Source: a virus (taxonomy: Duplodnaviria > Heunggongvirae > Uroviricota > Caudoviricetes). Taken from it: DNA of 40,732 nt. The translations under genes were made by a program, and so were the position numbers. The notes beneath the pieces were generated by a model, which worked only from the letters and a program-made list of their open reading frames with translations, made no database searches and was not told where the DNA came from. Shown one piece after another: positions 1 to 40,732 of the stretch. The stretch lies in the IMG/VR virus record IMGVR_UViG_2859827302_000005, positions 1 through 40,732 of that record; one strand, 5' to 3'. How positions within the stretch are numbered: position 1 is the first letter of the stretch; the number at the start of each line of letters is the position of its first letter.

Positions 1-171
1 TCAATAAATCCCATCATTGCGATCAACCTCATCCTTAACCATTGATGCGAGCAGTTCTTCCAGTTTCTGCGCTGACAGCTTTACCTGGTGATCTTCAGCA
101 TCTTCCCGGGCTATTGTGGTTCGCGCAGTGGCTGATTTTGCTGACATCACCACAGGGGGCAGACGGACCAT
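1..171 (-). CDS. hypothetical small protein (56 aa)
   Basis: ORF ending with a stop at window position 1-3; ATG at 171-169 preceded by GGAGG about 11 nt upstream. The longer 93-aa version in the ORF track overlaps the tfa-like remnant and is discounted. No family recognised. Confidence 0.3.
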   Translation of the reverse strand: MVRLPPVVMSAKSATARTTIAREDAEDHQVKLSAQKLEELLASMVKDEVDRNDGIY

Positions 172-233
172 TGAACCATGGCCTCCGGAACAAATAAGGG
201 CAAAAATAACAACCACTATCGAAAGCTCACAAA

Positions 234-554
234 CTAACCGCAGCACGTTCCTGCATACGACGTGTCTGCGGCATAATCCCAATGATTACTCCCTGACAGG
301 ATTTGCAGGCCACTCAATATCGGTGCAGTTGATGTATCAACACGATTCAACAATACCCGATATTTATTCCATGCCTCCAGCAACGATCTTTCTTCCTCCG
401 TTGCGATTTCCAGATCTACAGCATCCTGCAGTGGCGCAATATACTCACTGAATTCCTGGATGTAGAACTGTGTGGTGGCGGTCTTCCAGCCATTCGGCTC
501 CTGCTGTATCGAAGCATACCAGGCTATTTCAATATCGCTATGCTGCGGCAGCAT
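234..554 (-). pseudogene. tail fiber assembly (Tfa)-like remnant with a C-terminal frameshift
   Basis: Translation contains the Tfa motif [39 protein letters not shown]. Relative to the intact tfa at 1334..1918 one nt is missing (ccgatatt vs cctgatatt), so the reading frame runs into an unrelated tail. The N-terminal half differs from lambda Tfa. Confidence 0.5.
236..450. repeat. direct repeat copy A (tfa 3' end plus hairpin), about 215 bp
   Basis: Aligns by eye with 1285..1500 at roughly 85-90% identity. Includes the inverted repeat ccgcagcacgt...acgtgtctgcgg. Confidence 0.6.
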
Positions 555-622
555 TTAACCCCTTGTAATTCATCGCCATAATTGATTTAATTCACAAATA
601 AAACTATAACATGGTGAAATCA

Positions 623-1279
623 ATGAAAAAAAACACAGATGATGGGGCTAAAATTTACACACCACTTACCCTAAAGCTTTATGACTGGTGGGTTTTGGGA
701 GTATCAAATCGGCTTGCATGGGGATGTCCTACAAAGGAACACCTTCTTCCACACTTTCTGGAACATGTAGGTAACAACCATCTGGATATTGGTGTTGGAA
801 CTGGGTTTTACCTTACTCACGTACCTGAGAGTAGTCTGATATCTTTAATGGATTTGAACGAAGCTAGCCTGAACGCGGCATCTACAAGGGCTGGGGAATC
901 AAAAATTAAACATAAAATTAGCCATGATGTTTTTGAACCTTATCCCGCGGCGTTACATGGTCAATTTGATTCCATTTCCATGTTTTACCTTCTTCACTGC
1001 CTGCCTGGAAATATATCTACAAAAAGCTGTATAATACGCAATACGGCGCAGGCCTTAACTGACGATGGAACTCTATACGGAGCCACAATTCTTGGCGATG
1101 GAGTTGTGCACAATAGCTTCGGTCAAAAACTGATGCGCATTTACAATCAGAAAGGCATCTTTTCAAACACAAAAGATTCCGAAGAAGGCTTAACACATAT
1201 ACTCTCAGAGCATTTCGAGAATGTTAAAACCAAGGTTCAAGGTACTGTAGTAATGTTTTCCGCTTCAGGGAAAAAATAG
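623..1279 (+). CDS. class I SAM-dependent methyltransferase (moron; substrate unknown)
   Basis: Motif I HLDIGVGTGFY followed by an acidic beta-2 end (LMDLN). Visibly AT-rich, on the strand opposite to the phage late genes. GGTGA Shine-Dalgarno 5 nt before the ATG at 623; an alternative ATG lies at 611. Confidence 0.65.
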   Translation: MKKNTDDGAKIYTPLTLKLYDWWVLGVSNRLAWGCPTKEHLLPHFLEHVGNNHLDIGVGTGFYLTHVPESSLISLMDLNEASLNAASTRAGESKIKHKISHDVFEPYPAALHGQFDSISMFYLLHCLPGNISTKSCIIRNTAQALTDDGTLYGATILGDGVVHNSFGQKLMRIYNQKGIFSNTKDSEEGLTHILSEHFENVKTKVQGTVVMFSASGKK

Positions 1280-1319
1280 CATCCAACCGCAGCACGTTCT
1301 TGCTTAAGACGTGCTGCGG
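1271..1319 (-). terminator. putative intrinsic terminator downstream of tfa
   Basis: Perfect 11-bp stem ccgcagcacgt/acgtgctgcgg at 1287..1319, followed on the minus strand by a T-rich tract (ttggatgctatttttt). Confidence 0.4.
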
Positions 1320-1500
1320 CATAATCCCAATGATTACTCCCTGACAGGGTTCGTAGGCCACTCAATATCAGGTGCAGTTGATGTATCAACACGGTTCAGC
1401 AACACCCGATACTTTTTCCAGGCTTCCAGCAATGAGGTTTCTTCCTCCGTTGCAATTTCCAGATCTGCAGCATCCTGAAGCGGCGCAATATGCTCACTGG
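1285..1500. repeat. direct repeat copy B (3' end of intact tfa plus downstream hairpin)
   Basis: Homologous to 236..450; together the two copies flank the methyltransferase gene. Confidence 0.6.
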
Positions 1501-1918
1501 CTACCTGCATCAGGTTGTTTTTTGTTTCTTCCGCCTCCCGGATCCGGAACATTTTTTCTGCTTCCGTACCCTTCACCCAGGCTGTGCCGTTCCACTTCTG
1601 AAACTCCCCTTCCGGCGATAACCAGGTAACATTTTCCGGTAACGGACCGAGTTCAGAAATAAATAACTCGTCCCCTGACGCTACGTCATAAACCGTTTTA
1701 CCCCGATGGTCTTCAACGAGATGCCACGATGCCTCATCACTGTTGAAAACAGCCACAAAGCCAGCAGGAATATCTGGTGGTGCAATATCGGTACTGTTTG
1801 CTGGCAGACCTGTATGAGGCGGAATATATGCGTCACCTTCACCAATAAATTCATTAGTTCCGGCCAGCAGATTATAAATTTTTATGGTCCGTGCTTGTTC
1901 ACTCATTCTGAATGCCAT
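1334..1918 (-). CDS. tfa: tail fiber assembly protein Tfa (lambda orf-194 type)
   Basis: 194 aa, near-identical to lambda Tfa as I recall it (MAFRMSEQ...[12 protein letters not shown]). Its ATG overlaps the stf stop codon. Confidence 0.9.
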
Positions 1919-4893
1919 TATGCAAGCCTCACAATATAGTTAAATGCGATGTTTTTGACGGTGTTTTCCGCGTTACCAGCAGCGTTAACGGTGATGGTGT
2001 GTCCATGTGAACCAATCGCAACGGAGTGCGTATGCGCACCAATACCTACAGTATGTGCATGTGCGCCAGAACTTGCTGCAGTACCAGACAGCGAGTGGGT
2101 ATGAGCACCTGCTGACTGTGTCTGAATACGTTGATAATACGATCTACGGGAAGAAGTCCCCGGGCTTACTTGATACTGTGAATCCTGGACATAAGTGAAC
2201 CCACCGCCATCATAAAATGCTAACGCAGAACCGCCGCCTCCTGGCCAACGAATACCATTACCATGAGTATGATCACCGGCAGACCCCGTAGAGCCACTCA
2301 GACTGTGCGTATGCGCCCCGGTGTTATTCGTGGATTTGGTTCCGTAATCAAACGACGATGTGTTTTTCGTCCCCAAATCCGTACTGGATGCGCTGGCGCT
2401 GTGGGTGTGCGATTTAATGCCGTCCTGTTCCTGAGACAATACGGCACGACCACTGGCGGGTTTGCCCTTAATCGTCCAGCCACGCATATCAGGGATCACG
2501 CCTGACGGATAAGCGGCTGCAAGTTTCGGGTATGCAGATTTGTCAAAAGTCTGCCCCTGCATCAGGGCATAGCCAGACGGAACGGTATCTGATGGCCACG
2601 GGATTGGTGCGCCAGGCGGATAAAACTGCTCTGATGGCGTATAGAGTGCATAAACTGTACCGTCCGTTAACCCTTCCGGCTTATTAGCAGAATATGCTGG
2701 TGACGTATGAATCGTCACGCTGGCATTACTGGTATAATCCCATTGAATATTTACACCAGTCGCATAATTTCCGATTGCAACGTAAATATCGTAAGTATCA
2801 CCAGATGTATTGACCCAGGCAAAATTTGTAAACCCTGTCGATGTGCGCTGCCATAAAGCACCAGTAATCCCCTTCGGATTACCATTACCTGCACGCAAAA
2901 CAAGTTCAGATATACCTGCCTGTTGAGGTGACCCCACGTTAAATCCCGCACCACCAATCAACGTAATTGAAACAACAGAACTCGCCTGTGGCATGGTTAC
3001 CGTTGCTAATTTGAACCAACCAGCACCACCGCTGAATGACATTGTTGTTGAGTTAAGCGTACCAATATCTTTCGGCGTCAGTGTTATATCCGCTGAAAGC
3101 GCCTTACCATTCACCTTACGGGCAGAAGGTACCCGACCATTCGCATTATCATTAGCTGCTTTCACTGCTTTCGGTGTCGCGGCAAGCGTTTCAGATGCGC
3201 TGTTGGTTGCACTACTGAGCTGGACAATTCCTTTTTGTGCTGTCGTAGCGTCCTGAGCAGTATATTTCCCGTTAGCAAGGTCATAGGCTGCCTTTACCGA
3301 CTTTGGCGTTGCCGCCAGCATTTCAGATGTGCTGTTGGTCGCGTTGCTAAGCTGAACTATCCCTTTCTGTGCTGTCGTTGCATCCTGTGCGGTGTATTTC
3401 CCGTTAGCCAGCTCATACGCGGCCTTAACGGCTTTTGGCGTTGCCGCCAGTGACTCGGAAGTGCTGTTAGTCGCACTGCTGAGCTGTACTATCCCCTTTT
3501 TCGTCGTGCTCGCATCCTCAAGCGCCACGGCGGATGCAATATCCTCTGCCCGTTTTGCCGCTGTCTCAGCGCGCGTTGCCGCGGATTCCGCCGTACTTTT
3601 GCTCTGAGCTGCCGCCGTCGCACTGCCAGCTGCCTCTGTCGCCTTCGTGGATGCCGTCGTGGCGCTGCCCTTTGCTGCTGACGCCTGTCTGGTCGCCTCA
3701 TCTTTTGAAGCAGACGCAGATGATGCCGATGACGCCGCCGAACTGGCGGACGATGCGGCAGCCGTTTTTGAGGATTCTGCGCTGGTTTCCGACGCTTTCG
3801 CGTTCGTCTCGGATGTCTTCGCTGCGGAAGCAGACCTCGCTGCTGCGCTGGCCAGTACAGCGGCTTCGCCAGCCTTCGTTGTGGCTGTTGAAGCAGACGA
3901 TGCAGCACTTTCTGCAGATTTTCCGGCGGCGGTGGCACTGGCTGAGGCCTGCCCGGCACTTGTTGACGCGGCACTGGCAGATAATGCAGCCGCTGTTTTT
4001 GAGTCTGCCGCAGCTGAGGCGCTCTGTCCCGCTGCCGTTTCAGAAGACCTGGCGTTCGTCTCGGACGTTTTTGCCGCCTTCGCAGAATTTGCTGCCGCCG
4101 TTGCCGAGGAAGCTGCGCTGCTGGCGCTCGAGGCTGCGTTCGTTTCTGATGATTTTGCCGCCTCTTTTGAAGCCGACGCATCCCGTGCTGAAGTGGCTGC
4201 TTCTGACGCTTTCGTGGTCGCGGTGGATGCAGAAGTGGCTGCTGATTGTTGTGACGCTGCCGCATTCGTTTCTGACGTTTTCGCGGCACTGGCACTGGTA
4301 GCTGCCGCGCTTTTTGAGGACTCTGCAGCAGCAGCACTTTTCGATGCTTCACTGGCCTTTGTTGATGCCGCTCCTGCGCTGGAAGACGCTGACTGAGCCG
4401 ACGACGCGGCCTGTCCGGCTGACGTGCTGGCTGCGCGTGCTGAGCCTGCAGCATCAGTCGCATGGGTTGCCGCCTCACGGGCTGATGTGCGGGCATCGCT
4501 GGCTGACTTCTTCGCGGCTGCCGTGTTCTGTGCCACTGCGGACGCGTTACGCGCCACCTCTTCCACCATCAGTTCAAAACGGCGCAGTGCCTCTGGCCGG
4601 ACATCATCCTCCGTCATTGCACCGAGGAAATCATTCAGTGTGCCCGGCTTTGAGTCCTCATATACGGTGATAATCCCGGCGTGTGACGGCGGGAATCCCT
4701 CCACCAACAGACTGACGCTGTACTGACCATACTCGACGTCCATTGTATAACGCCCGGCTTCATCCGGATTTTCTGAGGCCACTGTGTTCACCACCACCGT
4801 GGTGCTGTTGCGCCTGGCCTTTAGCTGAATGGTGCAGTTTTGTATCGGCTTACCTGCACCATCTTTCAGTACACCTGAAATCAGTACTGCCAT
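1918..4893 (-). CDS. stf: side tail fiber protein Stf (StfR-like, 991 aa)
   Basis: Lambda Stf N-terminus ([32 protein letters not shown]). Long Ala/Ser/Thr-rich low-complexity shaft, three tandem 44-aa repeats, and a C-terminal tip with HTHSLSG/HxH repeats. Confidence 0.9.
3100..3500. repeat. three tandem ~132-bp repeats inside stf
   Basis: DNA repeat starts at about 3225, 3358 and 3489, encoding three copies of [44 protein letters not shown]. Confidence 0.5.
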
Positions 4894-4902
4894 ATTCCCC
4901 CC

Positions 4903-4931
4903 ACAAAAAAGCCCGCCTGAACCGGCGGGCT
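4903..4931 (-). terminator. intrinsic terminator downstream of lom
   Basis: Stem agcccgcc/ggcgggct with a 6-7 nt loop, followed on the minus strand by TTTTTTGT. Confidence 0.6.
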
Positions 4932-4957
4932 GTCATAACACTGTGTTACCTGGCTAA

Positions 4958-5557
4958 TCAGAATTTATAGCCGACACCAACGATGAAACTGTTGGTACGC
5001 CAGTCACCACTGCCGGAGCCTTCATAAGCAATATCAATGGCCACGGATTCGGTCGGGTTAAACTGCACGCCAGCCCCCCACGCCAGAGACGTGTTGCTGT
5101 GGCGACCGTCATCACTTCCGGTCAGCACATCGTGCGTTTTCCCCTTGTTGTCAGTTACACGGAGATAATCCCCGGAAAAAGTCGACACACGACTGTAAGT
5201 CACACCCGCCATCGCATACGCGCTGAACCATTCATTCACGCGCACAGACGGCCCCGCCATCACGCTGAACCAGCGGTTACGCACGGAATCTTCATGCCAG
5301 CGGGTATCGCTGTAATGCGTTTTTTGCTCATCTTTGGCATTGGCATAACTGAATGACGTCACCAGCCCCAGCGTGTCCGTAAACTCATAACGGTATTTCA
5401 CGTTAATCCCGTTCAGATCATCGCTGCCTGGCATATCAGTATGGGTCTGAAGATACCCGGCGCTTAGTGTGGACTGATGCTCTGCTGCGCTCGCTGGCAT
5501 ACCAGCGGCAACCAGCCAGACTACTGCGGACAGAATAACAGCACATAATTTACGCAT
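4958..5557 (-). CDS. lom: outer membrane protein Lom (Ail/Lom family)
   Basis: 199 aa with signal peptide and beta-barrel pattern ending ...FIVGVGYKF. Canonical position after J. Confidence 0.9.
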   Translation of the reverse strand: MRKLCAVILSAVVWLVAAGMPASAAEHQSTLSAGYLQTHTDMPGSDDLNGINVKYRYEFTDTLGLVTSFSYANAKDEQKTHYSDTRWHEDSVRNRWFSVMAGPSVRVNEWFSAYAMAGVTYSRVSTFSGDYLRVTDNKGKTHDVLTGSDDGRHSNTSLAWGAGVQFNPTESVAIDIAYEGSGSGDWRTNSFIVGVGYKF

Positions 5558-9104: not shown

Positions 9105-9114
9105 TCCTCACACT

Positions 9115-9146
9115 CCATAAACAACAAAGCCGCCCAAAAGGCGGCT
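9115..9146 (-). terminator. putative intrinsic terminator between lipoprotein moron and J
   Basis: Stem agccgcc/ggcggct with a short loop, followed on the minus strand by TTGTTGTTTATGG. Confidence 0.45.
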
Positions 9147-9170
9147 CATGAGTTACGGCAGGATTAACTA

Positions 9171-9509
9171 TTATTTACATGCATTAACACTATCAGCAAA
9201 AATTTTTGGCGTTAATGCTGGTACACGTTCATAAAGAGTAAAACTACTGCCATTTCCTGCTTTTTTGATATCAAGCACAATATCATATCCCCCCATAGCC
9301 TGTGGAACTAAAAGGCTTACCCCATTCTCAATAGGAAGGGATGTTATAGGTGTTCCATTACCAGCCCATTGTCTGGATATGCAGCCTGACAATTCATCAA
9401 TATTTTTTAATGAATTACCTTCCATTACAGGTTTTCCGGATTTTACGTAATCCAAAGATTTACATCCTGTTAAGGCAATAATCGTGCAGAATAAAATCGT
9501 TTTGTTCAT
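9171..9509 (-). CDS. putative lipoprotein (moron between I and J)
   Basis: 112 aa from the ATG at 9509; the ORF-track start at 9521 is a TTG. Signal peptide with lipobox LTGC (MNKTILFCTIIALTGC). AT-rich; lambda has no gene at this position. Confidence 0.6.
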   Translation of the reverse strand: MNKTILFCTIIALTGCKSLDYVKSGKPVMEGNSLKNIDELSGCISRQWAGNGTPITSLPIENGVSLLVPQAMGGYDIVLDIKKAGNGSSFTLYERVPALTPKIFADSVNACK

Positions 9510-9581
9510 ATAGCTAACCAATAGAATAATTATCAGTGTTCGATATAAATATTAAATCAGTTAGAACATGAGTAAATAATA

Positions 9582-10871: not shown

Positions 10872-10875
10872 GGGA

Positions 10876-14867: not shown

Positions 14868-14893
14868 CTCACGCGCCAGTCTGAGGGCAAAGT

Positions 14894-15325: not shown

Positions 15326-15338
15326 GTATTACCTCCGT

Positions 15339-15944: not shown

Positions 15945-15951
15945 CTCGCCC

Positions 15952-27287: not shown

Positions 27288-27291
27288 TGAA

Positions 27292-27507: not shown

Positions 27508-27618
27508 ACCCCGTCTCCCGTTATCCGGAAGCTGACAACAATAAAAAAAGCCACCAGTTAAGTACTGATGGCTCTGATAACTCATGCAGGCCTCTCAGAC
27601 GACCCACTGGATTTGCCC

Positions 27619-28847: not shown

Positions 28848-28993
28848 CTGTACTCCAATGACTAGTCTAAAAACTAGTATTAAGACTATCACTTATTTAA
28901 GTGATACTGGTTGTCTGGAGATTCAGGGGGCCAGTCTACCCACTGACACTACCGGTGAGTTTAACGATACCTTCCATTTGACTGGCTCACTTT

Positions 28994-30850: not shown

Positions 30851-30930
30851 GGTTCTTTCCACCATCTGAAAAATGGGTGATGCTGCCAACTTACTGATTT
30901 AGTGTATGATGGTGTTTTTGAGGTGCTCCA

Positions 30931-31206
30931 GTGGCTTCTGTTTCTATCAGCTGTCCCTCCTGTTCAGCTACTGACGGGGTGGTGCGTAACGGCAAAAGCA
31001 CTGCCGGACATCAGCGCTATCTCTGCTCTCACTGCCGTAAAACATGGCAACTGCAGTTCACTTACACCGCTTCTCAACCCGGTACGCACCAGAAAATTAT
31101 TGATATGGCCATGAATGGCGTTGGATGCCGGGCAACTGCACGCATTATGGGCGTTAGCCTCAACACGATTTTACGTCACTTAAAAAACTCAGGCCGCAGT
31201 CGGTAA
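30931..31206 (+). CDS. insA: IS1 InsA
   Basis: 91 aa, [43 protein letters not shown]…. Confidence 0.9.
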
Positions 31207-31250
31207 CCTCGCGCATACAGCCGGGCAGTGACGTCATCGTCTGCGCGGAA

Positions 31251-31628
31251 ATGGACGAACAGTGGGGATACGTCGGGGCTAAATCGCGCCAGCGCTGGCT
31301 GTTTTACGCGTATGACAGGCTCCGGAAGACGGTTGTTGCGCACGTATTCGGTGAACGCACTATGGCGACGCTGGGGCGTCTTATGAGCTTGCTGTCACCC
31401 TTTGACGTGGTGATATGGATGACGGATGGCTGGCCACTGTATGAATCCCGCCTGAAGGGAAAGCTGCACGTAATCAGCAAGCGATATACGCAGCGAATTG
31501 AGCGGCATAACCTGAATCTGAGGCAGCACCTGGCACGGCTGGGACGGAAGTCGCTGTCGTTCTCAAAATCGGTGGAGCTGCATGACAAAGTCATCGGGCA
31601 TTATCTGAACATAAAACACTATCAATAA
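31251..31628 (+). CDS. insB: IS1 InsB frame (C-terminal part of the InsAB' transposase)
   Basis: …[51 protein letters not shown]…; expressed by -1 frameshift from insA. Confidence 0.8.
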
Positions 31629-31886
31629 GTTGGAGTCATTACCTGAAAAATGATTCTTTAAAATACCTGACATGTAATACAGAAAAAAACAAAACCATAC
31701 CTTAAATAAAAACCTCATCATCAAGCAGATATGCATGGATAAACTACAAGACGAGATATAAACCACCATGCATTTAAATAAACAATAAACAACATCAGAA
31801 AAATAATTCTGCTCTATGGTTTACAATCAAAAATATCATTTATACTTTTCAGAACATCACCAGCAAGACATAAACAAGGAAACTAA

Positions 31887-32222
31887 ATGAAGTGGATTGT
31901 GATTGATACAGTTATCCAGCCATCATGCGGAATATCTTTTTCAGTCATATGGAGTAAAATAAAATTAATAATCTGGTATCAATCGGATGCTTTCTTACCT
32001 CCTGAAAGTATATTTACACTGACTCACACAGGCATCATGCTCAATAACAAAGTGCTACCTGTAACCATTTACAACGTAGTGCCATTCAATAAAACATTCT
32101 GGAATTTAATCAAAAACAGCCAGGAATGCCCTACAAATACAGATAACGTATTGAATGAATGCTTTAATAACCGTTGCACTCTGCAAATATGTCCTTATGG
32201 ACTAAAACAACAAAGTCCATAA
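31887..32222 (+). CDS. hypothetical 111-aa protein, AT-rich, Cys-rich C-terminus
   Basis: AAGGA Shine-Dalgarno 7 nt before the ATG, very AT-rich upstream region, opposite strand to the late genes. Five Cys in the last ~35 aa. No family recognised. Confidence 0.45.
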
Positions 32223-32257
32223 GGAGTTTACTCACATCTGACAAAATCAATATAAAC

Positions 32258-32455
32258 AGCCCCTCCGTAGAGGGGCTGGAGAGTGGCGCTATGTGCCATT
32301 GCATGGTGCCGGGTGCCTCCCGGTGAATTCAGTACCAGCACCTGAATCCGCGATTATCCCATATACCTACTCGCTGATTGCCCCTCCGCACAGGGGGATT
32401 CACCATGCGAAATTTTTTAACAAACTTCCCGCTGGCCAGACAATAATCGCCAGCC
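32258..32455. repeat. structured non-coding element, paralog 1 (candidate sRNA or recombination element)
   Basis: Shares ordered conserved blocks with 32721..32920: GC hairpin agcccctccgtagaggggct, gcatggtgccgggtgcctcccggtgaattcag, a hairpin attcag-N9-ctgaat, agggggattcaccatgcga, and ttttttaacaaa…gccagacaat. No conserved ORF. Confidence 0.4.
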
Positions 32456-32720
32456 TGAATTATGAGCAACGTAGCATTTTACGGGAAAACTGTTTTCTGC
32501 AGTAAAAAGGCCCGCCGGAGCGAGCCTGGAAGGATAGCGGTCATGTGATGCCGGTTTCCCGGTAACTCAGCATCGGTATCTGAGTCAACGTTTTCTCTAC
32601 TGGGTCATTTCCGATACGTTCCGCCTTCCGGCAGACTTTCATCACGTCAGAAAATATAGCACCCTGAGTAACAGGACAGTACTCAGAATTCAGGAAACTG
32701 TGACACATCCTGCACAGAAA

Positions 32721-32920
32721 AGCCCCTCCGGAGAGGGGCTGAAGTATAGCCTAATTTCTGTCTGTCGCATGGTGCCAGGTGCCTCCCGGTAAATTCAGCC
32801 TGTCTACTGAATTTGCATGTTCTCTGGATCATACACTTTGCCAGATGCCCCGCCGCTGAGGGGGATTCACCATGCGATGTAATTTTTAACAAATTCTCCG
32901 GCAGCCAGACAATCATCAAG
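32721..32920. repeat. structured non-coding element, paralog 2
   Basis: Same block order as 32258..32455. The internal hairpin keeps its stem but changes its loop (aaattcag-N8-ctgaattt). Confidence 0.4.
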
Positions 32921-33109
32921 CTGTGGAATTGTGAGGTATTTAAAAATTTCAACGGGTAACTGATACCCTGCTAATCGCCTGATGCTTTCTTTTTCAGCAA
33001 CGGGAAAGCAACAACCACCACACCCGCCACCAAAACATCATCAGACAGCACCGACATTATCCGGCTGCTGAAGTCCACCATCACCACCAGAAACAACAGG
33101 AGTGCAACC

Positions 33110-33157
33110 ACAGCTGCTTAGAAGGCAATTGCTCTGTCCGGCTGAGCTAACAACGCA
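33110..33157 (-). pseudogene. tRNA-Arg(UCU) argO-like remnant (5' half only)
   Basis: Minus strand GCGTTGTTAGCTCAGCCGGACAGAGCAATTGCCTTCTAAGCAGC gives acceptor 5' strand, D-arm and anticodon arm (loop CTTCTAA). No T-arm or complementary acceptor 3' strand follows. Confidence 0.3.
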
Positions 33158-33170
33158 GAATACCGATAAA

Positions 33171-33247
33171 TGGACCGCCATCGAGAACTCGAACCCCGCG
33201 CAACCAGCTTCGAAGGCTGGCGCTCTATCCCGATGAGCTAATGGCGG
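33171..33247 (-). tRNA. argN: tRNA-Arg (anticodon UCG), argN-like
   Basis: Manual fold: 7-bp acceptor CCGCCAT/ATGGCGG, D-stem GCTC/GAGC, anticodon stem CCAGC/GCTGG with loop CTTCGAA, T-loop TTCGAGT (T-stem with two G-U pairs), 3' CCA encoded. Confidence 0.7.
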
Positions 33248-33254
33248 TATGTGA

Positions 33255-33330
33255 TGGTGGCCCTTGCTGGATTTGAACCAGCGACCTGGCGATTATGAGT
33301 CGCTCGCTCTCACCACTGAGCTAAAGGGCC
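33255..33330 (-). tRNA. ileZ: tRNA-Ile2 (anticodon CAU, lysidine type), ileZ-like
   Basis: Minus strand GGCCCTTTAGCTCAGTGGTGAGAGCGAGCGACTCATAATCGCCAGGTCGCTGGTTCAAATCCAGCAAGGGCCACCA, close to E. coli ileX as I recall it. Confidence 0.85.
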
Positions 33331-33370
33331 GGGAGCCGCATAATAACGACGCGTAATTAATTCTGCAATA

Positions 33371-34429
33371 TCATCCGTTCTGGCTGACTAAATCCTGTAC
33401 TTCCCGAACCGTCTGCTCAAAACGTCCGGTCTCCAGCTCAACGCCAATCGCACGACGCCCGAGCGCCAGTGCCGCTTTTACCGTTGAACCTGAGTCCATA
33501 AAAAAATCTGCAACCAGGTCACCCGGACGACTGCTTGCGCTGATTATCTGCTGCAGCATTTCTGCCGGTTTTTCGCACGGATGTTTCCCGGGATAGAACT
33601 GCACCGGTTTATGTGTCCACACATCCGTGTACGGCACCTGCGCCGTCACACCAAAATACCGCCGCAGATGCTTATATTCACTCTGCAGCTCCACATACTG
33701 CCGGTTCAGTGACGTATACGTATCCACCAGCTGGTAGTGGGGCTTTTCCAGTTCACCGCGCTGATGTTTCTCTTCTGCCACCCGGGCAAACAGCGACTGT
33801 AATTTCAGATAATCGCTTTCGTTCGGTAGCTGCCACTGACTGGCACTGAACCAGTGCGACACCATGTTTTTCTTTCCTGTGGCATCTGCAATCTGTTTTG
33901 CCGTTATCCCCAGGGCCGCGCGCGCATCACGAAAGTAAGAAATCAGCGGGGCCATCACATGCTGTTTCAGTGCACTGCCCTTCGCCGCATACCCGGCATC
34001 TTTCGGACGATACGGCCCCTGATAATGTTCCGCGAACAGAATGCGCTCTGTGGCGGGGAAATACGCCCGCAGGCTTTCCTTGTTGCATCCGTTCCAGCGT
34101 CCGGACGGCTTCGCCCAGATAATATGGTTCAGCACACTGAAGCGTTCACGCATCATGATTTCGATATCAGATGCCAGGCGATGACCACAGAACAGGTAAA
34201 GACTTCCGGCAGGTTTCAGCACCCGCCAGAACTGCGCCAGACACTGGTCCAGCCACTTCAGGTAATCATCGTCGCCCTTCCACTGGTTATCCCAGCCCTC
34301 AGGCTTCACTTTAAAGTACGGCGGGTCCGTGACTATCAGGTCAACAGAATTTTCGGGTAACGACCGGATAAATTCCAGGCAGTCGGCGTTGATTAACTCA
34401 CAACTGGATATTTTTACAGTATTAGCCAT
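33371..34429 (-). CDS. orphan DNA N6-adenine (or N4-cytosine) methyltransferase, beta class
   Basis: 352 aa with an N-terminal DPPY motif (LIVTDPPYF) and a C-terminal SAM motif (DLVADFFMDSGST). No adjacent restriction endonuclease gene. Confidence 0.85.
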   Translation of the reverse strand: MANTVKISSCELINADCLEFIRSLPENSVDLIVTDPPYFKVKPEGWDNQWKGDDDYLKWLDQCLAQFWRVLKPAGSLYLFCGHRLASDIEIMMRERFSVLNHIIWAKPSGRWNGCNKESLRAYFPATERILFAEHYQGPYRPKDAGYAAKGSALKQHVMAPLISYFRDARAALGITAKQIADATGKKNMVSHWFSASQWQLPNESDYLKLQSLFARVAEEKHQRGELEKPHYQLVDTYTSLNRQYVELQSEYKHLRRYFGVTAQVPYTDVWTHKPVQFYPGKHPCEKPAEMLQQIISASSRPGDLVADFFMDSGSTVKAALALGRRAIGVELETGRFEQTVREVQDLVSQNG

Positions 34430-34565
34430 AGATCAATAAGCACTTCTCTGATAGGCTCATACCGCTTTTGCGCAAAGCAGATGGGCCTGAGGTTTGCTTG
34501 TGAATCCAACGCATGAGCAGATGGCTGGTGGGTGCCCCTAACACCCACCAGCCGCCCATTTACCA

Positions 34566-34594
34566 CAAATAAAAAAGCCTTCACTGCGGAAGGC
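34566..34594 (-). terminator. intrinsic terminator immediately after the small ORF
   Basis: Stem gccttc/gaaggc with loop actgcg, followed on the minus strand by a long T-run (plus-strand aaataaaaaa). Confidence 0.5.
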
Positions 34595-34778
34595 GTCTGT
34601 AACAACCGAACTGATAGTCTGCCAGACCCGCCATAACCAGCTGGGTCAGTATTAACTGGCAGCGTTCGCGTGAAAGGTAAGTATTCTGCGCAATCTCCCC
34701 GACTGTCGCCGGGTCGTTAACGCTTAATTCATTAAACACCACTCTGGCGGTTTCTGTCATATCCTGCTGTTTTAGCAT
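34581..34778 (-). CDS. hypothetical 65-aa protein
   Basis: MLKQQDMTETARVVFNELSVNDPATVGEIAQNTYLSRERCQLILTQLVMAGLADYQFGCYRRLPQ; GGAAAAGGG Shine-Dalgarno-like sequence upstream. Lies between two terminators. Confidence 0.4.
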   Translation of the reverse strand: MLKQQDMTETARVVFNELSVNDPATVGEIAQNTYLSRERCQLILTQLVMAGLADYQFGCYRRLPQ

Positions 34779-34898
34779 GTCTTTTTCCCTTTTCCGGTTA
34801 ACGTGACACACCAATAACTCTTGTCGAAAAAGCCAGCAAGCTGAAAGACAGGTATTCACCGCCACCAGCGCGTTTACTGTACTGACGCGATTTCAGTC

Positions 34899-34923
34899 AT
34901 AAAAAACCCGCCAGGCGGCGGGG
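34899..34923 (-). terminator. tR'-like intrinsic terminator downstream of Q
   Basis: Stem cccgcc/ggcggg with a 4-nt loop, followed on the minus strand by TTTTTT. Lies about 80 nt after the Q stop, where pR' and a short leader are expected. Confidence 0.55.
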
Positions 34924-35004
34924 TGTAAAAAATCTTCTAACGTCAGGCATAAAACGCCCATCGTTAGAGCAAATTTACCACAGATTCGGGAAAAATCAAC
35001 AACA

Positions 35005-35826
35005 CTATCGCGTTACCCTCTTTAACTGCCGCTCCGCCCATGCCTCTTCAATGTCAAACCGAACCACCAACGTATCGTAAAAGCGTTTCACTGATTTTTT
35101 CCACGTATCAAGCGTGATAGCACTCGTCACTTTGCATATGGCATTAAATGCCTCCGTTGATGGTAGTCTTTCACAGCCACGACCACCACAACGCTGGCAG
35201 TCTCTGATAACAGGCATACCACGTTTTACCGACTCTTCACGATGAATGGCGACACCACGCCCACGGCAATCCTTACAGGCGGTGGAAACCTCACCCTTTC
35301 CGCCACACTCCGGACAGGCAACTTTTACCACCTCCCTGACTTTTTTCCATTCTTCCCAGTAAGACGGATACACACCTTTCGTACACTTTGCCCATACCGG
35401 CGGCTTACCATCCGGATACTGGACCTTGTTTGTAAAAACTACGCTTTCAATAAATTTTTCCCCATAGCAACAAGGGCACTGCTTTTTACTCGCTGCGCTG
35501 CGGGCATAATCCTCAAAAGCGTACGAAGCCATAATGCGCATCACTACCGGTTTTATTTCTGCCGGAAGTTTTCTCAACGCCGCCACACGATCGCACCGAC
35601 TGAGTGCATAATCTGCCAGTAATTCTGTTGCCCGCGCCCTGTCATTCATACTGATGCCCATTTTCCCCAGGAACGCAGAAAACCCCATCTCAGCCCGATT
35701 CTGTGTCATGCCCTGCGCGGCCATCACATCAGTGATACTCAGCGCATCTTTTGACGTTGAGGCCGATACATCGGTCAGGCCAGGGGATTTTGGGGAGTAG
35801 TATTTCGGTAAATCTTCCAGTTTCAT
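35005..35826 (-). CDS. Q: late antiterminator Q (Q82/YdfT-like, zinc-finger)
   Basis: 273 aa with CxxC…CxxC motifs (CPECGGKGEV…CKDCRGRG, CQRCGGRGCERLPSTEAF) resembling the phage-82-type Q family as I recall it. ATGA overlap with the rusA stop. Confidence 0.65.
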   Translation of the reverse strand: MKLEDLPKYYSPKSPGLTDVSASTSKDALSITDVMAAQGMTQNRAEMGFSAFLGKMGISMNDRARATELLADYALSRCDRVAALRKLPAEIKPVVMRIMASYAFEDYARSAASKKQCPCCYGEKFIESVVFTNKVQYPDGKPPVWAKCTKGVYPSYWEEWKKVREVVKVACPECGGKGEVSTACKDCRGRGVAIHREESVKRGMPVIRDCQRCGGRGCERLPSTEAFNAICKVTSAITLDTWKKSVKRFYDTLVVRFDIEEAWAERQLKRVTR

Positions 35827-36197
35827 TTTTTGACCTGCTCTTCATGCATTATGGGGTAAATCTTCACCCCCATACGTCCACCAGATACTGGCTGACCACG
35901 AACGATATTGATTTCATCAAACTGCTCATCGTCCATTAACACTCCCGCATGCGTCAGCGCATCCAGCGGTGCTTTCAGGATATTGTCCAGGTCGCGACGA
36001 CGCTTATCCGGTGGCTCTGCAATCACCTTTATCGCCAGCCTTCCGGACAGGCTTAATTTCAGCCGCTGCTGGCGAACAATAAGCGCCACAGCCCGGCGAT
36101 AACGCTTTCCCTCCTCCGAGATAAAATATGTGCTGCCACGGCGTCGCCAGTAAGTGTTCACCGTCGGCGGGTAAGGTAAAACCAAATCTATGAGCAT
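35823..36197 (-). CDS. rusA: Holliday junction resolvase RusA
   Basis: 124 aa with the RusA signature …PDKRRRDLDNILKAPLDALTHAGVLMDDEQ…. Confidence 0.85.
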   Translation of the reverse strand: MLIDLVLPYPPTVNTYWRRRGSTYFISEEGKRYRRAVALIVRQQRLKLSLSGRLAIKVIAEPPDKRRRDLDNILKAPLDALTHAGVLMDDEQFDEINIVRGQPVSGGRMGVKIYPIMHEEQVKK

Positions 36198-36209
36198 CAG
36201 TCACCTCTT

Positions 36210-37256
36210 TTACCCAAGCACGCCAGTTGCAAAGGCGTGATCAAGAAAACGAAAAATTAAATCAACCTGAGAACCATGCTTTTCTTCGAACGCCAGAGGA
36301 TCCGCATGAAGCTCGTTGTGATGCTCCCGACACAGCGGTAGCGTGAAAATATCGTGAGATTTTGTCCCCATTCCGCCCTGACCATGACCAATCAGGTGAT
36401 GGGGATCGTCGGCTGGCTTACCACAACACGCACACGGCTGTGTCTTCACCCAGCGTGTGTATTTCTCGTTAACCCAGCGGCGACGTTTAGGTCGTTTCAT
36501 GAAAGATTCCGGAGACTCAGGATCAACGGCAATGCTGACCACCGTCTCTTCCTGTGGCGGGTTTTGCTGGTGGGCGTGAGGCAGCGGCGCAAGATTTTTT
36601 GTGCGCTGCTTCAGTATGCTGGTGGCGGTCTGCTCTCCCGGTACGATGTCGCTTTCACGGTACATTGAGCGGATTTTTTCCGCACGCAACCCCAGCGAAC
36701 GACGTAATACCGCTTCCGGTAGCGCGTCCGCCACCTGATTGCGGACCGCCCACCAGGATAATTCAGCCAGCGATAATTCCCGTTCCTGCGAGCCATTCAT
36801 TGCATGGCGTATGACGTCAATCATCCATGCAGACAGGTTTTGGTGAGCAAGTTGCCCGAGTGATTCGGAGGTCTGGTCGCGCAGCTGGTTGTCGCAGTGC
36901 CAGCACAACACCATTGCGCCGGTACCATAACGGTGAATGACGGTTTCACTGTGGTGATAATCGCCGTGTGGCCACTGGCAGGATTTAACATGGCGCAGTA
37001 ACCAGTCAGACAATGCGCCAGCGCCACCAGCAGCACGAATCACTCGTTCGTCGCTGAAAAATGGCAGTAATGATTTATCCTCCGCCAGCGGCTGGCGAAC
37101 GGCAGGAACGACCCCGGACGGCAGATTACGCATGCTTTTCGGTTCCGGCTCCACCAGTACCCGGGTATTGTGGAATACCGGCATGGATTCACGGCCCGGC
37201 TTAACGATCACCAGCCCGAGTTCCGGTACCAGAACAGGTCGAAGTAATACCCGCAC
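36210..37256 (-). CDS. ydfU: DUF968/YdfU-like protein with C-terminal HNH-like motif
   Basis: 348 aa. C-terminus CACCGKPADDPHHLIGHGQGGMGTKSHDIFTLPLCREHHNELH has Cys and His-Asn-His motifs. ORF-track start is a GTG; an ATG lies 24 codons in. Confidence 0.7.
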   Translation of the reverse strand: MRVLLRPVLVPELGLVIVKPGRESMPVFHNTRVLVEPEPKSMRNLPSGVVPAVRQPLAEDKSLLPFFSDERVIRAAGGAGALSDWLLRHVKSCQWPHGDYHHSETVIHRYGTGAMVLCWHCDNQLRDQTSESLGQLAHQNLSAWMIDVIRHAMNGSQERELSLAELSWWAVRNQVADALPEAVLRRSLGLRAEKIRSMYRESDIVPGEQTATSILKQRTKNLAPLPHAHQQNPPQEETVVSIAVDPESPESFMKRPKRRRWVNEKYTRWVKTQPCACCGKPADDPHHLIGHGQGGMGTKSHDIFTLPLCREHHNELHADPLAFEEKHGSQVDLIFRFLDHAFATGVLG

Positions 37257-37257
37257 G

Positions 37258-37536
37258 TTATCTCCAGATGCGTTGCTGGTATGTGCGGGACAGACGCGGT
37301 GGGCGTTCGGAGTAAGGAAGCCTGACGGAGATTATCCAGTGACGGTAGTCGAGGCTAAGGGCTTTTTTAACCTCGCATCCGCGCCTGCGGTAACACTGAA
37401 TGAGCCATTCGGCCTGTTCTTCAGTGCATGAGGGATGCTGGTACCAGTCTGACTTAAATGCGTGAGAATACCGCTCGTGCGTGTGGGCAAGAACGGTCGA
37501 ATTATCATGTTTGTAATATTTTGCGTTGCGTGCCAT
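37258..37536 (-). CDS. hypothetical 92-aa phage protein
   Basis: ATG with GGAGA Shine-Dalgarno; its stop abuts the DUF968 start. No family recognised. Confidence 0.5.
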   Translation of the reverse strand: MARNAKYYKHDNSTVLAHTHERYSHAFKSDWYQHPSCTEEQAEWLIQCYRRRGCEVKKALSLDYRHWIISVRLPYSERPPRLSRTYQQRIWR

Positions 37537-37602
37537 CGGTTTTCTCCGGTGGCACGGTGTTACTCAGCGGGAGTTCAGCCCCGCGCAAGATTGTAGATGA
37601 GT

Positions 37603-37854
37603 TTATTCTTCTGAAAAAGCAGAAAAGCCAGCTTTTATTCCGATCTCTTTCAATACCTGTAATGAAGTGACAAACTCACCGTCGCGCAAGATAAATCCGT
37701 CCGTCACTCGGGCATCCACAAAATTAATTAACGCAGCCCCATTTTTTTGCAAACACACAATGCGGTAATGACTAACAATATTTCCATTTTCAACGCACAC
37801 AGCATAGAGGCCATCTTCACAAAAAATTTTACGCAGTTCTTCGATGTTCATCAT
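37603..37854 (-). CDS. rem: Rem-like small prophage protein (83 aa)
   Basis: Same size as the Qin-prophage Rem and adjacent to hok, as in Qin. GGAAGG Shine-Dalgarno. Assignment by size and position only. Confidence 0.45.
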   Translation of the reverse strand: MMNIEELRKIFCEDGLYAVCVENGNIVSHYRIVCLQKNGAALINFVDARVTDGFILRDGEFVTSLQVLKEIGIKAGFSAFSEE

Positions 37855-37965
37855 CAGAATCCTTCCGGATAATTAGCTCTCCCCTTTAAGGGACCATCCC
37901 TCTTATCCCTGCGCGCTACTTAAGTATTTTTGATTCTATTCCGGCACCGTCCAGAACTTCAAATG

Positions 37966-38000
37966 CGTTGAAAATAAAAACAAAAACCCGCCGAAGCGGG
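37966..38000 (-). terminator. intrinsic terminator at the 3' end of the hok mRNA
   Basis: Stem cccgc/gcggg with loop ttcg, followed on the minus strand by TTTTTGTTTTTATTTT. Confidence 0.65.
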
Positions 38001-38070
38001 TTAAGTGCGGGTGCGTTGAGAATGCCTGCCACATCAGAGGTGGCGAGGGATTTCTCCCTCGCCGGGTCTC

Positions 38071-38226
38071 TTACTCCTCAGGTTCGTAAGCTGTGAAGAC
38101 AGCGACCTCCGTCTGGCCGGTTCGGATTCGTACCTCGCAGAGGTCTTTCCTCGTTACCAGTGCCGTCACAATGACGGTTAAACAGATGACGATCAGGGCG
38201 ATTAGCATCGCCTTTTGCTGCTTCAT
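38071..38226 (-). CDS. hok: Hok-family type I toxin
   Basis: MKQQKAMLIALIVICLTVIVTALVTRKDLCEVRIRTGQTEVAVFTAYEPEE, 51 aa. Confidence 0.9.
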   Translation of the reverse strand: MKQQKAMLIALIVICLTVIVTALVTRKDLCEVRIRTGQTEVAVFTAYEPEE

Positions 38227-38283
38227 AGCCTGCTTCTCCTTGCCTTTCGGCACGTAAGAGGCTAACCTACGTGTGTAGAGCAT
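38071..38283 (-). CDS. mok: Mok (overlapping reading frame that drives hok translation)
   Basis: 70-aa ORF in the same frame, extending 19 codons upstream of hok. Confidence 0.6.
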   Translation of the reverse strand: MLYTRRLASYVPKGKEKQAMKQQKAMLIALIVICLTVIVTALVTRKDLCEVRIRTGQTEVAVFTAYEPEE

Positions 38284-38300
38284 AGATATGGCCTCAGATT
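38230..38300 (+). ncRNA. sok: predicted Sok antisense RNA (approximate position)
   Basis: Placed by analogy with hok/sok loci, antisense to the mok start region. Boundaries not determined from sequence. Confidence 0.3.
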
Positions 38301-38517
38301 AATGTTAAGCGTCTTGCCGGACGCGTAATGTTAACTGGGGCTTTTCTCTATCTGCCTTTTGGTGTTCATGCCTGAGACAGATAGCCTCAAGCACCCGCTG
38401 CAATTCTACTTAACTCTCCTTTTCCCGCAAACCGTTTTTATCCCCAGCGGCAAATCGAATACACCACCAGCGCCACCGCCATCGCAATTCCTACCGTTGT
38501 TAATGCTTCAGGCCAGG

Positions 38518-38754
38518 TCATCGTAAAATATCCTCCACGCTTATCAGTCCGTTCCGCTCCAGATAACTCATCGCCTTATCCGGTAATTTGCAGTCTGGCT
38601 TCGCTTTCCTCAGTTGCCAGGTTAACTGCTTTACCAGCATGGTTAACTCATCGACCAGACGCTGATATCCCACTGGTTTGTATTCATGCAATTTACCGGC
38701 TGGCTCTGCTGCCAGCGATACCAGTGCGATTTCCAGAACAGCAATATCCATCTT
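38518..38754 (-). pseudogene. C-terminal part of a 114-aa gene split by IS2 copy 2
   Basis: Reading frame is continuous with 40091..40198 once IS2 and one TSD copy are removed (…IIRTYK|MDIAVLEIALVSLAAEPAGKLHEY…). Confidence 0.6.
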
Positions 38755-38765
38755 TGGATTTGCCC

Positions 38766-39671
38766 CTATATTTCCAGACATCTGTTATCACTTAACCCAT
38801 TACAAGCCCGCTGCCGCAGATATTCCCGTGGCGAGCGATAACCCAGCGCACTATGCGGATGCCATTCGTTATAATGCTCGAACGCCTCTGCAAGGTTCTT
38901 TGCTGCCGTTAACCCGTCTGGTTTGGGCATGATACTGATGTAGTCACGCTTTATCGTTTTCACGAAGCTCTCTGCTATTCCGTTACTCTCCGGACTCCGC
39001 ACCGCCGTGTTCTTCGGTTCAAGTCCCAACATCCGGGCGAACTGGCGTGTTTCATTAGCCCGGTAGCATGAACCATTATCCGTCAGCCACTCCACTGGAG
39101 ACGACGGAAGATCGTTGCCGAAGCGGCGTTCCACCGCTCCCAGCATGACGTCCTGTACTGTTTCACTGTTGAAGCCGCCGGTAGTCACCGCCCAGTGCAG
39201 TGCCTCACGATCACAGCAGTCCAGCGCGAACGTGACACGCAGTCTCTCTCCGTTATCACAGCAGAACTCGAACCCGTCAGAGCACCATCGCTGATTGCTT
39301 TCTTTCACGGCCACTCTGCCTGTATGTGCCCGTTTCGATGGCGGTACAGCAGGCTTTCGCTCAAGCAACAGCGCATTCTGGCGCATGATCCGGTAAACAC
39401 GTTTGGCATTGATCGCAGGCATACCATCAAGTTCTGCCTGTCTGCGAAGCAGCGCCCATACCCGACGATAACCATACGTGGGCAGCTCTCCGATAACATG
39501 GTGTATACGGAGAAGCACATCCGTATCATCAGTGTGACGACTGCGGCGGCCATCCATCCAGTCATCGGTTCGTCTGAGAATGACGTGCAACTGCGCACGC
39601 GACACCCGGAGACAACGGCTGACTAAGCTTACTCCCCATCCCCGGGCAATAAGGGCGCGTGCGCTATCCAC
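38766..39671 (-). CDS. insD: IS2 transposase OrfB (InsD)
   Basis: 301 aa; one amino-acid difference from copy 1 (K vs Q). Confidence 0.9.
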
Positions 39672-39994
39672 TTTTTTGCCCGTCCATATTCAACGGCTTC
39701 TTTGAGGAGTTCATTTTCCATCGTTTTCTTGCCGAGCAGGCGCTGGAGTTCTTTAATCTGCTTCATGGCGGCAGCAAGTTCAGAGGCAGGAACAACCTGT
39801 TCTCCGGCGGCCACAGCAGTAAGACTTCCTTCCTGGTATTGCTTACGCCAGAGAAATAACTGGCTGGCTGCTACACCATGTTGCCGGGCAACGAGGGAGA
39901 CCGTCATCCCCGGTTCAAAGCTCTGCTGAACAATTGCGATCTTTTCCTGTGTGGTACGCCGTCTGCGTTTCTCCGGCCCTAAGACATCAATCAT
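39629..39994 (-). CDS. insC: IS2 OrfA (InsC)
   Basis: 121 aa, identical to copy 1. Confidence 0.9.
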
Positions 39995-40090
39995 CTGTAC
40001 TCCAATGACTAGTCTAAAAACTAGTATTAAGACTATCACTTATTTAAGTGATACTGGTTGTCTGGAGATTCAGGGGGCCAGTCTAATCTT

Positions 40091-40198
40091 ATATGTGCGG
40101 ATGATGTCATGGTCGATTGTGCCCGGTATGCACAGTCTCTGTGCTTCAATAGTCTCCTCTGCGTGAGCTATTAACTGCTCTCTGGTAAAAGTCGTCAT
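40091..40198 (-). pseudogene. N-terminal part of the IS2-split gene
   Basis: [36 protein letters not shown], then the TSD; start ATG overlaps the stop of the upstream small ORF (ATGA). Confidence 0.5.
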
Positions 40199-40362
40199 GC
40201 CGTAGCCCCTTCTTGATATTTTTCAAACCAGAACACAACCGGCTCTGCTTCCAGCGATGCCAGCGCAATCCGTGCCAGTTCCATTTGTTCACCACGGGTA
40301 AGCCCGTTTTCAAGCGGGTTTTTAATGAACAATTCAATACGTTCTTTGGTAATAGTGGTCAT
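40195..40362 (-). CDS. hypothetical 55-aa protein, paralog-like to the IS2-split gene
   Basis: [55 protein letters not shown]. Below the ORF-track size cutoff. Shares the MTT…L(A/V)SL(E/A)AEP pattern with the downstream gene. Confidence 0.35.
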
Positions 40363-40364
40363 GT

Positions 40365-40732
40365 GTGAGGTAGCCTGAGTTTAACGGACACTCCTTCCTG
40401 AAATAGAATGGCATCAGAAGGAGCTAATAATGAGCAGAAAAAACCAACGTTACTCTAAAGAGTTCAAAGCCGAAGCTGTCAGAACGGTTCTTGAAAATCA
40501 ACTTTCGATCAGTGAAGGCGCTTCCCGATTATCCCTTCCTGAAGGCACTTTAGGACAATGGGTTACCGCCGCCAGAAAAGGGCTCGGTACTCCTGGTTCC
40601 CGCACGGTGGCTGAACTGGAATCTGAAATTCTGCAACTGCGTAAGGCGTTAAATGAAGCTCGCCTTGAGCGAGATATATTAAAAAAAGCAACAGCGTATT
40701 TTGCACAGGAGTCGCTGAAAAATACGCGTTAA
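40365..40732 (+). mobile_element. partial IS3-family element (IS600-like?), left end only
   Basis: Begins TGAGGTAGCCTGAGTTTAACGG… about 65 bp before an IS3-family orfA. The element runs off the window. Confidence 0.6.
40430..40732 (+). CDS. IS3-family transposase OrfA
   Basis: 100 aa, MSRKNQRYSKEFKAEAVRTVLENQLSISEGASRLSLPEGTLGQWV…, helix-turn-helix and leucine zipper typical of IS3-family OrfA. Confidence 0.8.
   Translation: MSRKNQRYSKEFKAEAVRTVLENQLSISEGASRLSLPEGTLGQWVTAARKGLGTPGSRTVAELESEILQLRKALNEARLERDILKKATAYFAQESLKNTR

Follow-up and report, generated by a model that had tools for sequence, protein, structure and literature searches.

A mosaic lambdoid prophage remnant at the ompW/trp locus of a presumed Shigella chromosome, with a putative decayed non-toxin cassette at the stx-equivalent position

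We analysed a window of 40,732 nucleotides of viral DNA (positions 1 to 40,732 of IMG/VR record IMGVR_UViG_2859827302_000005), which holds one lambdoid prophage with all its late genes and large open reading frames (ORFs) on the minus strand. Read in phage orientation, the order is hokD-rem-ydfU-rusA-Q-methylase-transfer RNA (tRNA) genes-cargo slot-nanS-p-holin-ydfR-R-Rz/Rz1-cos-Nu1...J-lom-stf-tfa (Table 1), the cargo slot being the position equivalent to that of stx in Shiga toxin (Stx) phages. The virion genes form a complete set in lambda order (Nu1-A-W-B-C/Nu3-D-E-FI-FII-Z-U-V-G-T-H-M-L-K-I-J-lom-stf-tfa). Elements of this kind are already known; they are ordinary recombinant patchworks whose modules circulate in E. 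coli and Shigella prophages. The window very probably represents most of a cryptic, defective mosaic lambdoid prophage inserted at ompW/trp in a Shigella chromosome.

From the tRNA genes to rusA (33115-36527, comprising rusA, Q, the 65-amino-acid (aa) ORF, the methylase, ileZ and argN), the window matches the Stx2a phage Stx2_EH1910 (LC567834) at 93% DNA identity, and its Q and methylase share 93% and 95% aa identity with the proteins of that phage. A preliminary description of this DNA had called the order Q-methylase-ileZ-argN-argO-nanS-p that of Stx phages. The relationship to Stx2a phages of the LC567834 type stands, but only two of the three tRNA genes are intact and argO is cut; ARAGORN and Rfam found two intact tRNA genes each and no third one in the window. 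Searching the literature for the three names ileZ, argN and argO combined with 'prophage' gave no papers. The likeness proposed to 933W/Sp5-type phages, short-tailed members of the Sepvirinae, did not hold. The methylase and the 157-aa Q of 933W are unrelated to those of the window (blastp of the window Q against 933W Q gave no match), its virion genes are completely different, with no DNA match to the window, its NanS-p shares 53% identity, ydfR is missing from it, and an ant gene lies between its R and Rz. Only the tRNA block (91.6% DNA identity), S (99% aa), R (93%) and Rz (84%) match well; hok/sok is likewise 91.6% identical, and STnc100 lies downstream of the slot in 933W as in the window.

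As had been described, the backbone carries no stx: tblastn of StxA2 and StxB2 against the window gave a best E-value of 0.46, and stx operon DNA found only chance-level matches of 14-19 bases elsewhere in it. Homology to the Stx phages and to a non-Stx prophage (L018) stops within argO at 33115, and in a multiple alignment the window departs at this point from 933W and LC567834. The DNA fused to the cut argO is a 5'-truncated DUF3927 gene, a homologue of which RefSeq calls a 28-aa DUF3927 protein. In L018, three tRNA genes are followed by terB, DUF3927 and STnc100; compared with this arrangement the window lacks exactly 654 bp (the 3' half of argO, terB and the start of DUF3927) and is otherwise colinear. 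The same junction (33114/33115) is present, identically, in six other, unrelated E. coli loci among those fetched (L001, L008, L021, L024, L030 and L035), one of which is the induced phage vB_EcoS-640R1 (ON470612). These results indicate that the slot is probably a decayed copy of the non-toxin argO-terB-DUF3927 version.

The far side of the slot is marked by two tandem genes of the STnc100 small RNA (sRNA) family, each ending in a terminator-like hairpin. In 933W and LC567834, STnc100 directly follows stxB, and in L018 it follows DUF3927; because it is downstream of both, stxAB and terB-DUF3927 occupy the same position, from argO to STnc100. AsxR, which adjoins STnc100 in 933W and L018, was not detected in the window. 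Beyond the sRNA genes lies an iraM-family anti-adaptor gene, for which Pfam gave no match at E <= 0.01. Two further ORFs (32293-32505 and 32683-32952), which have no family matches and overlap or adjoin the STnc100 genes, were set aside as probably spurious. Just after Q or the tRNA genes, related loci carry other cargoes: a kinase with a phosphatase, TfpB, AraC-type regulators and TolA-like proteins.

The preliminary description had taken the window for a former Stx-converting prophage in which stxAB was lost and replaced by other cargo. Colinearity with LC567834 from rusA to argO would fit such a history, as would the presence of STnc100 and iraM downstream of stxB in that phage, and the truncated argO means that some deletion did happen at the slot. 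A 2026 preprint, which reports that chromosomal esterase-sRNA-lysis blocks rarely adjoin stx and discusses rearrangement or stx loss, offers repeated loss of stx as one explanation of the blocks that are stx-free. Against this history, no stx remnant is left; the DNA fused to argO' is that of the terB-DUF3927 variant and not of a Stx phage; the argO'::DUF3927' junction is common to many E. coli; NanS-p shares no more than 53-60% aa identity with its Stx-phage counterparts; neither LC567834 nor 933W has a related head module; and colinearity with L018 already points to a split of the stx and terB-DUF3927 lineages before the argO' deletion. We therefore consider a toxin-bearing ancestor quite improbable.

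Frequencies point in the same direction. Among 5426 complete E. coli genomes, the slot (31644-33400) is covered over at least 80% of its length in 1011 and the Q-methylase-tRNA block in 1064, enteroaggregative strain 55989 included, while the methylase-tRNA-stx2A junction reaches this coverage in 472. With a slot that is colinear with a non-toxin arrangement, minus 654 bp, and that recurs in 1011 genomes, a directional replacement of toxin on a Stx-like backbone is unsupported. Because the stx-free arrangement is this common, a backbone of this kind without stx should not be taken as a sign that a toxin was lost. The alignments bear out the mosaic and the kinship of the Q-to-nanS region with the Stx phage LC567834, but the backbone is not Stx-specific. 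The presence of nanS-p in non-Stx prophages is likewise already on record (PMC10462455, PMC8065619).

The decayed non-toxin cassette could have arisen from an ancestral argO-terB-DUF3927 arrangement by a 654-bp illegitimate deletion, which would have truncated argO immediately behind the anticodon and taken terB with it. A stronger formulation would fix the limits of the cargo slot to the nucleotide, with the argO 3' end on one side and the beginning of the first STnc100 gene on the other, would make stxAB (about 1.4 kb) and terB-DUF3927 (about 0.8 kb) alternative cassettes within it, and would make the argO'::DUF3927' junction the deletion scar of the non-toxin one; we regard this whole proposal as unlikely. 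If true and undescribed, such an allelic cassette system would provide a framework for the entry and exit of stx in lambdoid backbones. The useful products are a corrected module map, a precise description of the slot and the frequency data; beyond annotation, the window is of little importance.

The closest relatives of the window are non-Stx. E. coli lambdoid prophages such as CP091401.1 (L021), Ec-2844 (L001), the GZ04-0086 ompW prophage (L002) and vB_EcoS-640R1 share its order ydfU-rusA-Q-methylase-tRNA-iraM-nanS-p-S-ydfR-R-Rz. The late region of CP091401.1 is 97.8-99.8% identical in DNA to that of the window and has none of the insertions, with an unaligned part around rem; the virion genes of GZ04-0086 are 98-99.4% identical, and this prophage also shares the ompW-side flank. 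The window differs from these relatives in its extra IS1, two IS2 and IS600, in lesions of I, V and C/Nu3, and in the loss of yciEFG-ompW'. LC567834 also has the order ydfU-rusA-Q-65-aa ORF-methylase-ileZ-argN-argO, with STnc100, iraM and nanS-p downstream of the slot and a holin, endolysin and Rz that are 87-99% identical in aa. However, its argO is complete and followed by stx2A-stx2B, in place of the argO', DUF3927 remnant and second STnc100 of the window; its NanS-p and YdfU share 60% and 59% aa identity with those of the window; and its head genes are of another type, with a prohead protease and a different terminase.

The head and tail genes had been described as near-identical to lambda, which proved incorrect. 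The head and packaging region (17501-25055) is 96.5% identical in DNA to phage 21 (OL657228), in an alignment that ends at base 1 of phage 21, its cos end, whereas against lambda (NC_001416) the head region shows 66-74% DNA identity and its proteins 27-69% aa identity. Nu1, A, W, B, C, D and E, seven proteins, are 93-100% identical to those of phage 21 versus 50-67% to those of lambda, and FI is a third allele (42% to phage 21, 27% to lambda). By these values the head module is assigned to the phage 21 type and not to lambda. Beyond the cohesive end, 25066-25108 is an 88% match to the right end of lambda. Most tail proteins stand at 68-83% identity to lambda: Z, U, V, G and H are 68-82% identical to both lambda and phage 21 and T is 72% identical (compared with lambda only), while M, L and K reach 94-99% to both. 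In DNA, the tail shaft genes are about 83% identical to lambda, with values above 94% confined to M, L, K and part of J.

Outside these modules both phages diverge from the window. Phage 21 shares the cos end, the virion gene order and a closely related J, but has a different Q, tRNA genes for Asn and Thr, and no methylase or nanS-p; its lysis genes encode a pinholin and a signal-anchor-release (SAR) endolysin, of which S is 79% identical to that of the window and R is distant (30% aa). Lambda shares the virion order, M, L and K at 95-99%, Tfa at 93% aa identity and an Rz/Rz1 of the same family. Unlike the window, it has a Q that is 30% identical, a holin S without detectable similarity and an R that is a transglycosylase where the window has a lysozyme, and it lacks the tRNA genes, methylase and nanS-p.

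The lysis genes had been said to match the Qin cassette of E. coli K-12. This is true of the gene order holin-YdfR-endolysin-spanin (essQ-ydfR-rrrQ-Rz in Qin) and of the presence of ydfR, whose product is 82% identical in aa to that of Qin. It is not true of the alleles: the holin is 99% identical to 933W S versus 79% to EssQ, the endolysin 93-94% identical to Stx-phage alleles versus 88% to RrrQ, and Rz 84-87% identical to Stx-phage alleles. Rz gave no blastp match to RzpQ, annotated as a DUF2514 protein, and belongs to the lambda family of Rz rather than to that of RzpQ. The real Qin-like stretch lies elsewhere, in ydfU-rem-hokD, and had gone unmentioned: 36210-38240 is 89.5% identical in DNA to Qin, with YdfU, Rem and HokD at 85%, 93% and 100% aa identity. 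Tfa (95% to TfaQ) and an IS2 fragment in Qin are further likenesses; the Q of Qin (YdfT) is 40% identical, and csp genes stand where the window has the tRNA genes and nanS-p. YdfU and the 55-aa protein encoded near the edge of the window are both very widespread (6570 and 16806 index blocks, respectively).

Decay of the prophage is visible in its insertion sequences. The load of IS1, IS2 and IS3-family elements noted before was confirmed as IS1, two copies of IS2 and IS600, by identity and, for IS1 and both IS2, by intact target duplications of the expected length. The IS1 matches IS1SD copies on plasmids of S. dysenteriae and S. boydii at 100% identity. Its distance from the start codon of nanS-p, upstream of which it lies, is 25 bp (the interval 30851-30875), and on this arrangement it probably separates nanS-p from upstream late transcription. 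The nanS-p ORF itself is intact; its DNA is 99.8% identical to CP091401.1, and its product 53-60% identical in aa to the NanS-p of Stx phages. The first IS2 splits the nanS-p/holin intergenic region of about 150 nt (27508-27607 and 28939-28993), and the 2026 preprint places the sRNA genes PasA/PasC at the nanS-p/holin intergenic position in related prophages. IS600 directly adjoins the 55-aa gene and continues beyond the window, which contains only its left 367 bp.

Three virion genes are also damaged. Gene I carries a 7-bp tandem duplication (CTGTTTG at 9738-9744 in the alignment with GZ04-0086) that causes a frameshift; V has lost its first 49 codons through a 147-bp deletion relative to GZ04-0086 (in the region of 15944); and C/Nu3 has a +1 frameshift at 19205, about 20 codons before the end of the gene. 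L010 and L011 show the V and C/Nu3 lesions too, and L013 and L014 the gene I duplication, these four being contigs of two assemblies (GCA_039774585.1 and GCA_028435205.1). We propose that IS1, IS2 (twice), IS600, the gene I duplication, the loss of V codons and the C/Nu3 frameshift would all represent later decay in the Shigella lineage, which may have left the element unable to make tails. Functions directed at the host could persist, in the form of two rare-codon tRNAs, sRNAs, IraM, NanS-p, Lom, methylases and hok/sok.

Could this nevertheless be an intact and inducible temperate phage in which the insertion sequences are mere passengers? The late ORFs are mostly of full length, cos is conserved, and each insertion is a simple one between late genes or in a small nin-region gene. 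When the window was assessed as an intact prophage, however, I was found frameshifted, V without 49 N-terminal codons and C/Nu3 frameshifted at its C-terminus; IS600, at the edge of the nin region, takes the place of whatever lay upstream, and the chromosomal flank is rearranged by IS1. We hold an intact phage to be very improbable, and because of the IS insertions and virion lesions a productive lytic cycle is predicted to be very unlikely. Insertion sequences and near-identical prophage modules are also classic causes of misassembly, so the mosaic might be an artefact that joins different prophages over repeated elements. Matching target-site duplications at the insertions, flanks that are contiguous in relatives free of them, 100% identity to a closed chromosome over 5339-25944, and module junctions that recur in independent genomes leave this explanation almost no probability.

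Some points weigh against the conclusion that the element is a defective prophage with a decayed non-toxin cassette. 'Defective' is a judgement from sequence lesions, which helper prophages might in principle make good. Outside the window lies the early region (int, repressor and replication genes), and its presumed loss is read only from the IS600 junction and from the prophage remnant in CP044151.1 described below. The placing of terB-DUF3927 as ancestral to the slot follows parsimony rather than a dated phylogeny.

The preliminary description had suggested a Shigella or non-O157 E. coli host, and the former is borne out: the closed chromosome that matches 5339-25944 is CP026828.1 (4.64 Mb, assembly GCA_002950015.1), labelled S. 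dysenteriae, which identifies the host, by identity over this interval, as a Shigella. A published table (PMC10501659) names the assembly 'Shigella dysenteriae' and places it with S. boydii genomes. The accession directly after that of the chromosome, CP026829.1, belongs to a plasmid of S. dysenteriae ATCC 12037, and from this adjacency the host strain may be ATCC 12037. The stx locus of S. dysenteriae type 1 was considered as an identity for the element and ruled out, given the lack of stx and the placement of the assembly among S. boydii-like genomes. Among the complete E. coli genomes in RefSeq, the whole element was not found in any one genome; its left 20 kb is 98.9% identical to the prophage of E. 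coli GZ04-0086, and the right half is covered over at most 78%.

In GZ04-0086, the tail-fibre end of the prophage abuts a partial ompW beside yciE-yciF-yciG-trpA. The left flank in the Shigella host (L012, 7103-9391) instead runs from trpEDCBA over a fragment of IS1 into the end of the prophage, and the yciG-yciF-yciE-ompW' segment of GZ04-0086 is absent between trpA and the prophage. Because of the ompW junction in GZ04-0086 and the trpA-IS1-prophage order in the host, we take the window to be an ompW-site prophage with an eroded chromosomal flank, which would have been rearranged by IS1. A related prophage remnant, riddled with insertion sequences, lies beside an intact ompW in CP044151.1 (L037, 5733-10168); few early-region genes remain in it, broken up by IS1 and IS600. 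This locus gives a hint that, in some Shigella-like genomes, the integrase and immunity region of the ompW prophage is gone.

Table 1. Features of the 40,732-nucleotide window, in order of position
Feature	Position	Strand	Evidence or remark
Distal prophage arm: remnants of tail-fibre-assembly, DinI-like and DUF4376 genes	1-610		RefSeq annotation of the 99.4% identical GZ04-0086 prophage
Class I SAM-dependent methyltransferase, accessory, low GC (0.44)	611-1279	+	Pfam Methyltransf_12, phrog_2132
tfa (1334-1918), side tail fibre, 991 aa (1918-4893), lom (4958-5557)	1334-5557	-	aa identities, homologue annotation
Tail tip protein J, 1159 aa	5625-9104	-	92% aa identity to phage 21 J, 83% to lambda J
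112-aa gene, function not assigned	9171-9509	-	phrog_914; no Pfam match
Tail assembly gene I, frameshifted	9582-10184	-	tblastn: split over two frames
Tail genes K, L, M, H, T, G, V', U, Z	10128-16877	-	68-99% aa identity to lambda and phage 21
V', without first 49 codons	15339-15944	-	201 aa versus 250 aa
FII, FI, E, D, C/Nu3, B, W, A, Nu1, phage 21 type	16893-24866	-	DNA and aa identity to phage 21
cos region	25031-25108		12-nt phage 21 cohesive end GGGCGGCGACCT ends at 25055, then cosQ-like segment
Rz	25309-25776	-	Pfam Phage_lysis (PF03245), E 8e-49
Rz1, embedded in Rz	25371-25556	-	ORF with lipobox
Endolysin	26066-26599	-	Phage_lysozyme precomputed on homologues
YdfR/DUF1327	26943-27287	-	Pfam DUF1327
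Class II holin	27292-27507	-	Holin_2_1 precomputed on homologues
IS2 copy 1, 1331 bp, simple insertion	27608-28938	-	99.6% identical to annotated IS2 of Ec-2844 (L001); junctions; target duplication CCCAC
nanS-p, prophage sialate O-acetylesterase, 618 aa	28994-30850	-	Pfam DUF1737, SASA, DUF6645
IS1 (IS1SD type), 768 bp	30876-31643	+	exact match to IS1 terminal repeat; junctions; 9-bp target duplication TGAAAAATG
iraM-family anti-adaptor gene, 111 aa	31887-32222	+	NCBIfam NF007393, 162 bits versus cut-off 121; RefSeq homologue annotation
Two tandem STnc100-family sRNA genes	32712-32905, 32248-32436	-	Rfam RF02076, 140.5 and 131.7 bits (gathering score 47)
DUF3927 gene remnant, 5'-truncated, fused to argO'	32994-33114	-	alignment with L018: starts at about codon 4
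argO', first 42 nt of tRNA-Arg(TCT), cut just past anticodon	33115-33156	-	alignment with 933W and LC567834
argN, tRNA-Arg(TCG)	33171-33247	-	ARAGORN, Rfam
ileZ, CAT-anticodon tRNA annotated tRNA-Ile	33255-33330	-	ARAGORN, Rfam
N6/N4 DNA methylase	33371-34429	-	Pfam N6_N4_Mtase
65-aa ORF	34581-34778	-	
Terminator-like hairpin	34907-34922	-	terminator scan
Antiterminator Q	35005-35826	-	Pfam Antiterm
rusA, ydfU (DUF968), 92-aa ORF, rem, hokD with sok-family RNA (38221-38396)	35823-38396	-	sok RNA: Rfam sok
114-aa nin-region gene split by IS2 copy 2, then 55-aa gene (40195-40362)	38518-40362	-	intact pair in relatives
IS2 copy 2, 1331 bp	38755-40085	within 38518-40362 (-)	junctions; target duplication ATCTT
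IS600 left end, OrfA 40430-40732	40366-40732	+	99.7% identical to 'IS3-like element IS600 family transposase'; NCBIfam IS3 family

Q would be expected to act at a late promoter between its own gene and the terminator-like hairpin next to it, and its action could yield one long transcript across the methylase, tRNA genes, slot, nanS-p, lysis and virion genes. At the distal end of such a transcript, Tfa is 93% identical in aa to lambda Tfa, the side tail fibre is a mosaic, and Lom is 43% identical to lambda Lom. Between I and J, an insert of low GC content (0.36; 9105-9581) carries the 112-aa gene and is present in GZ04-0086 but absent from lambda and phage 21, neither of which gave a DNA match over 9136-9585. 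Within the side tail fibre gene, 3137-3532 consists of three tandem 132-nt (44-codon) repeats that are 62-100% identical. The 3' end of tfa (1314-1510; 1377-1575 was also listed) is directly repeated at 266-461 with 86-95% identity, and an Rfam match to the 'IS009' RNA (221 bits) overlaps the same end of the gene.

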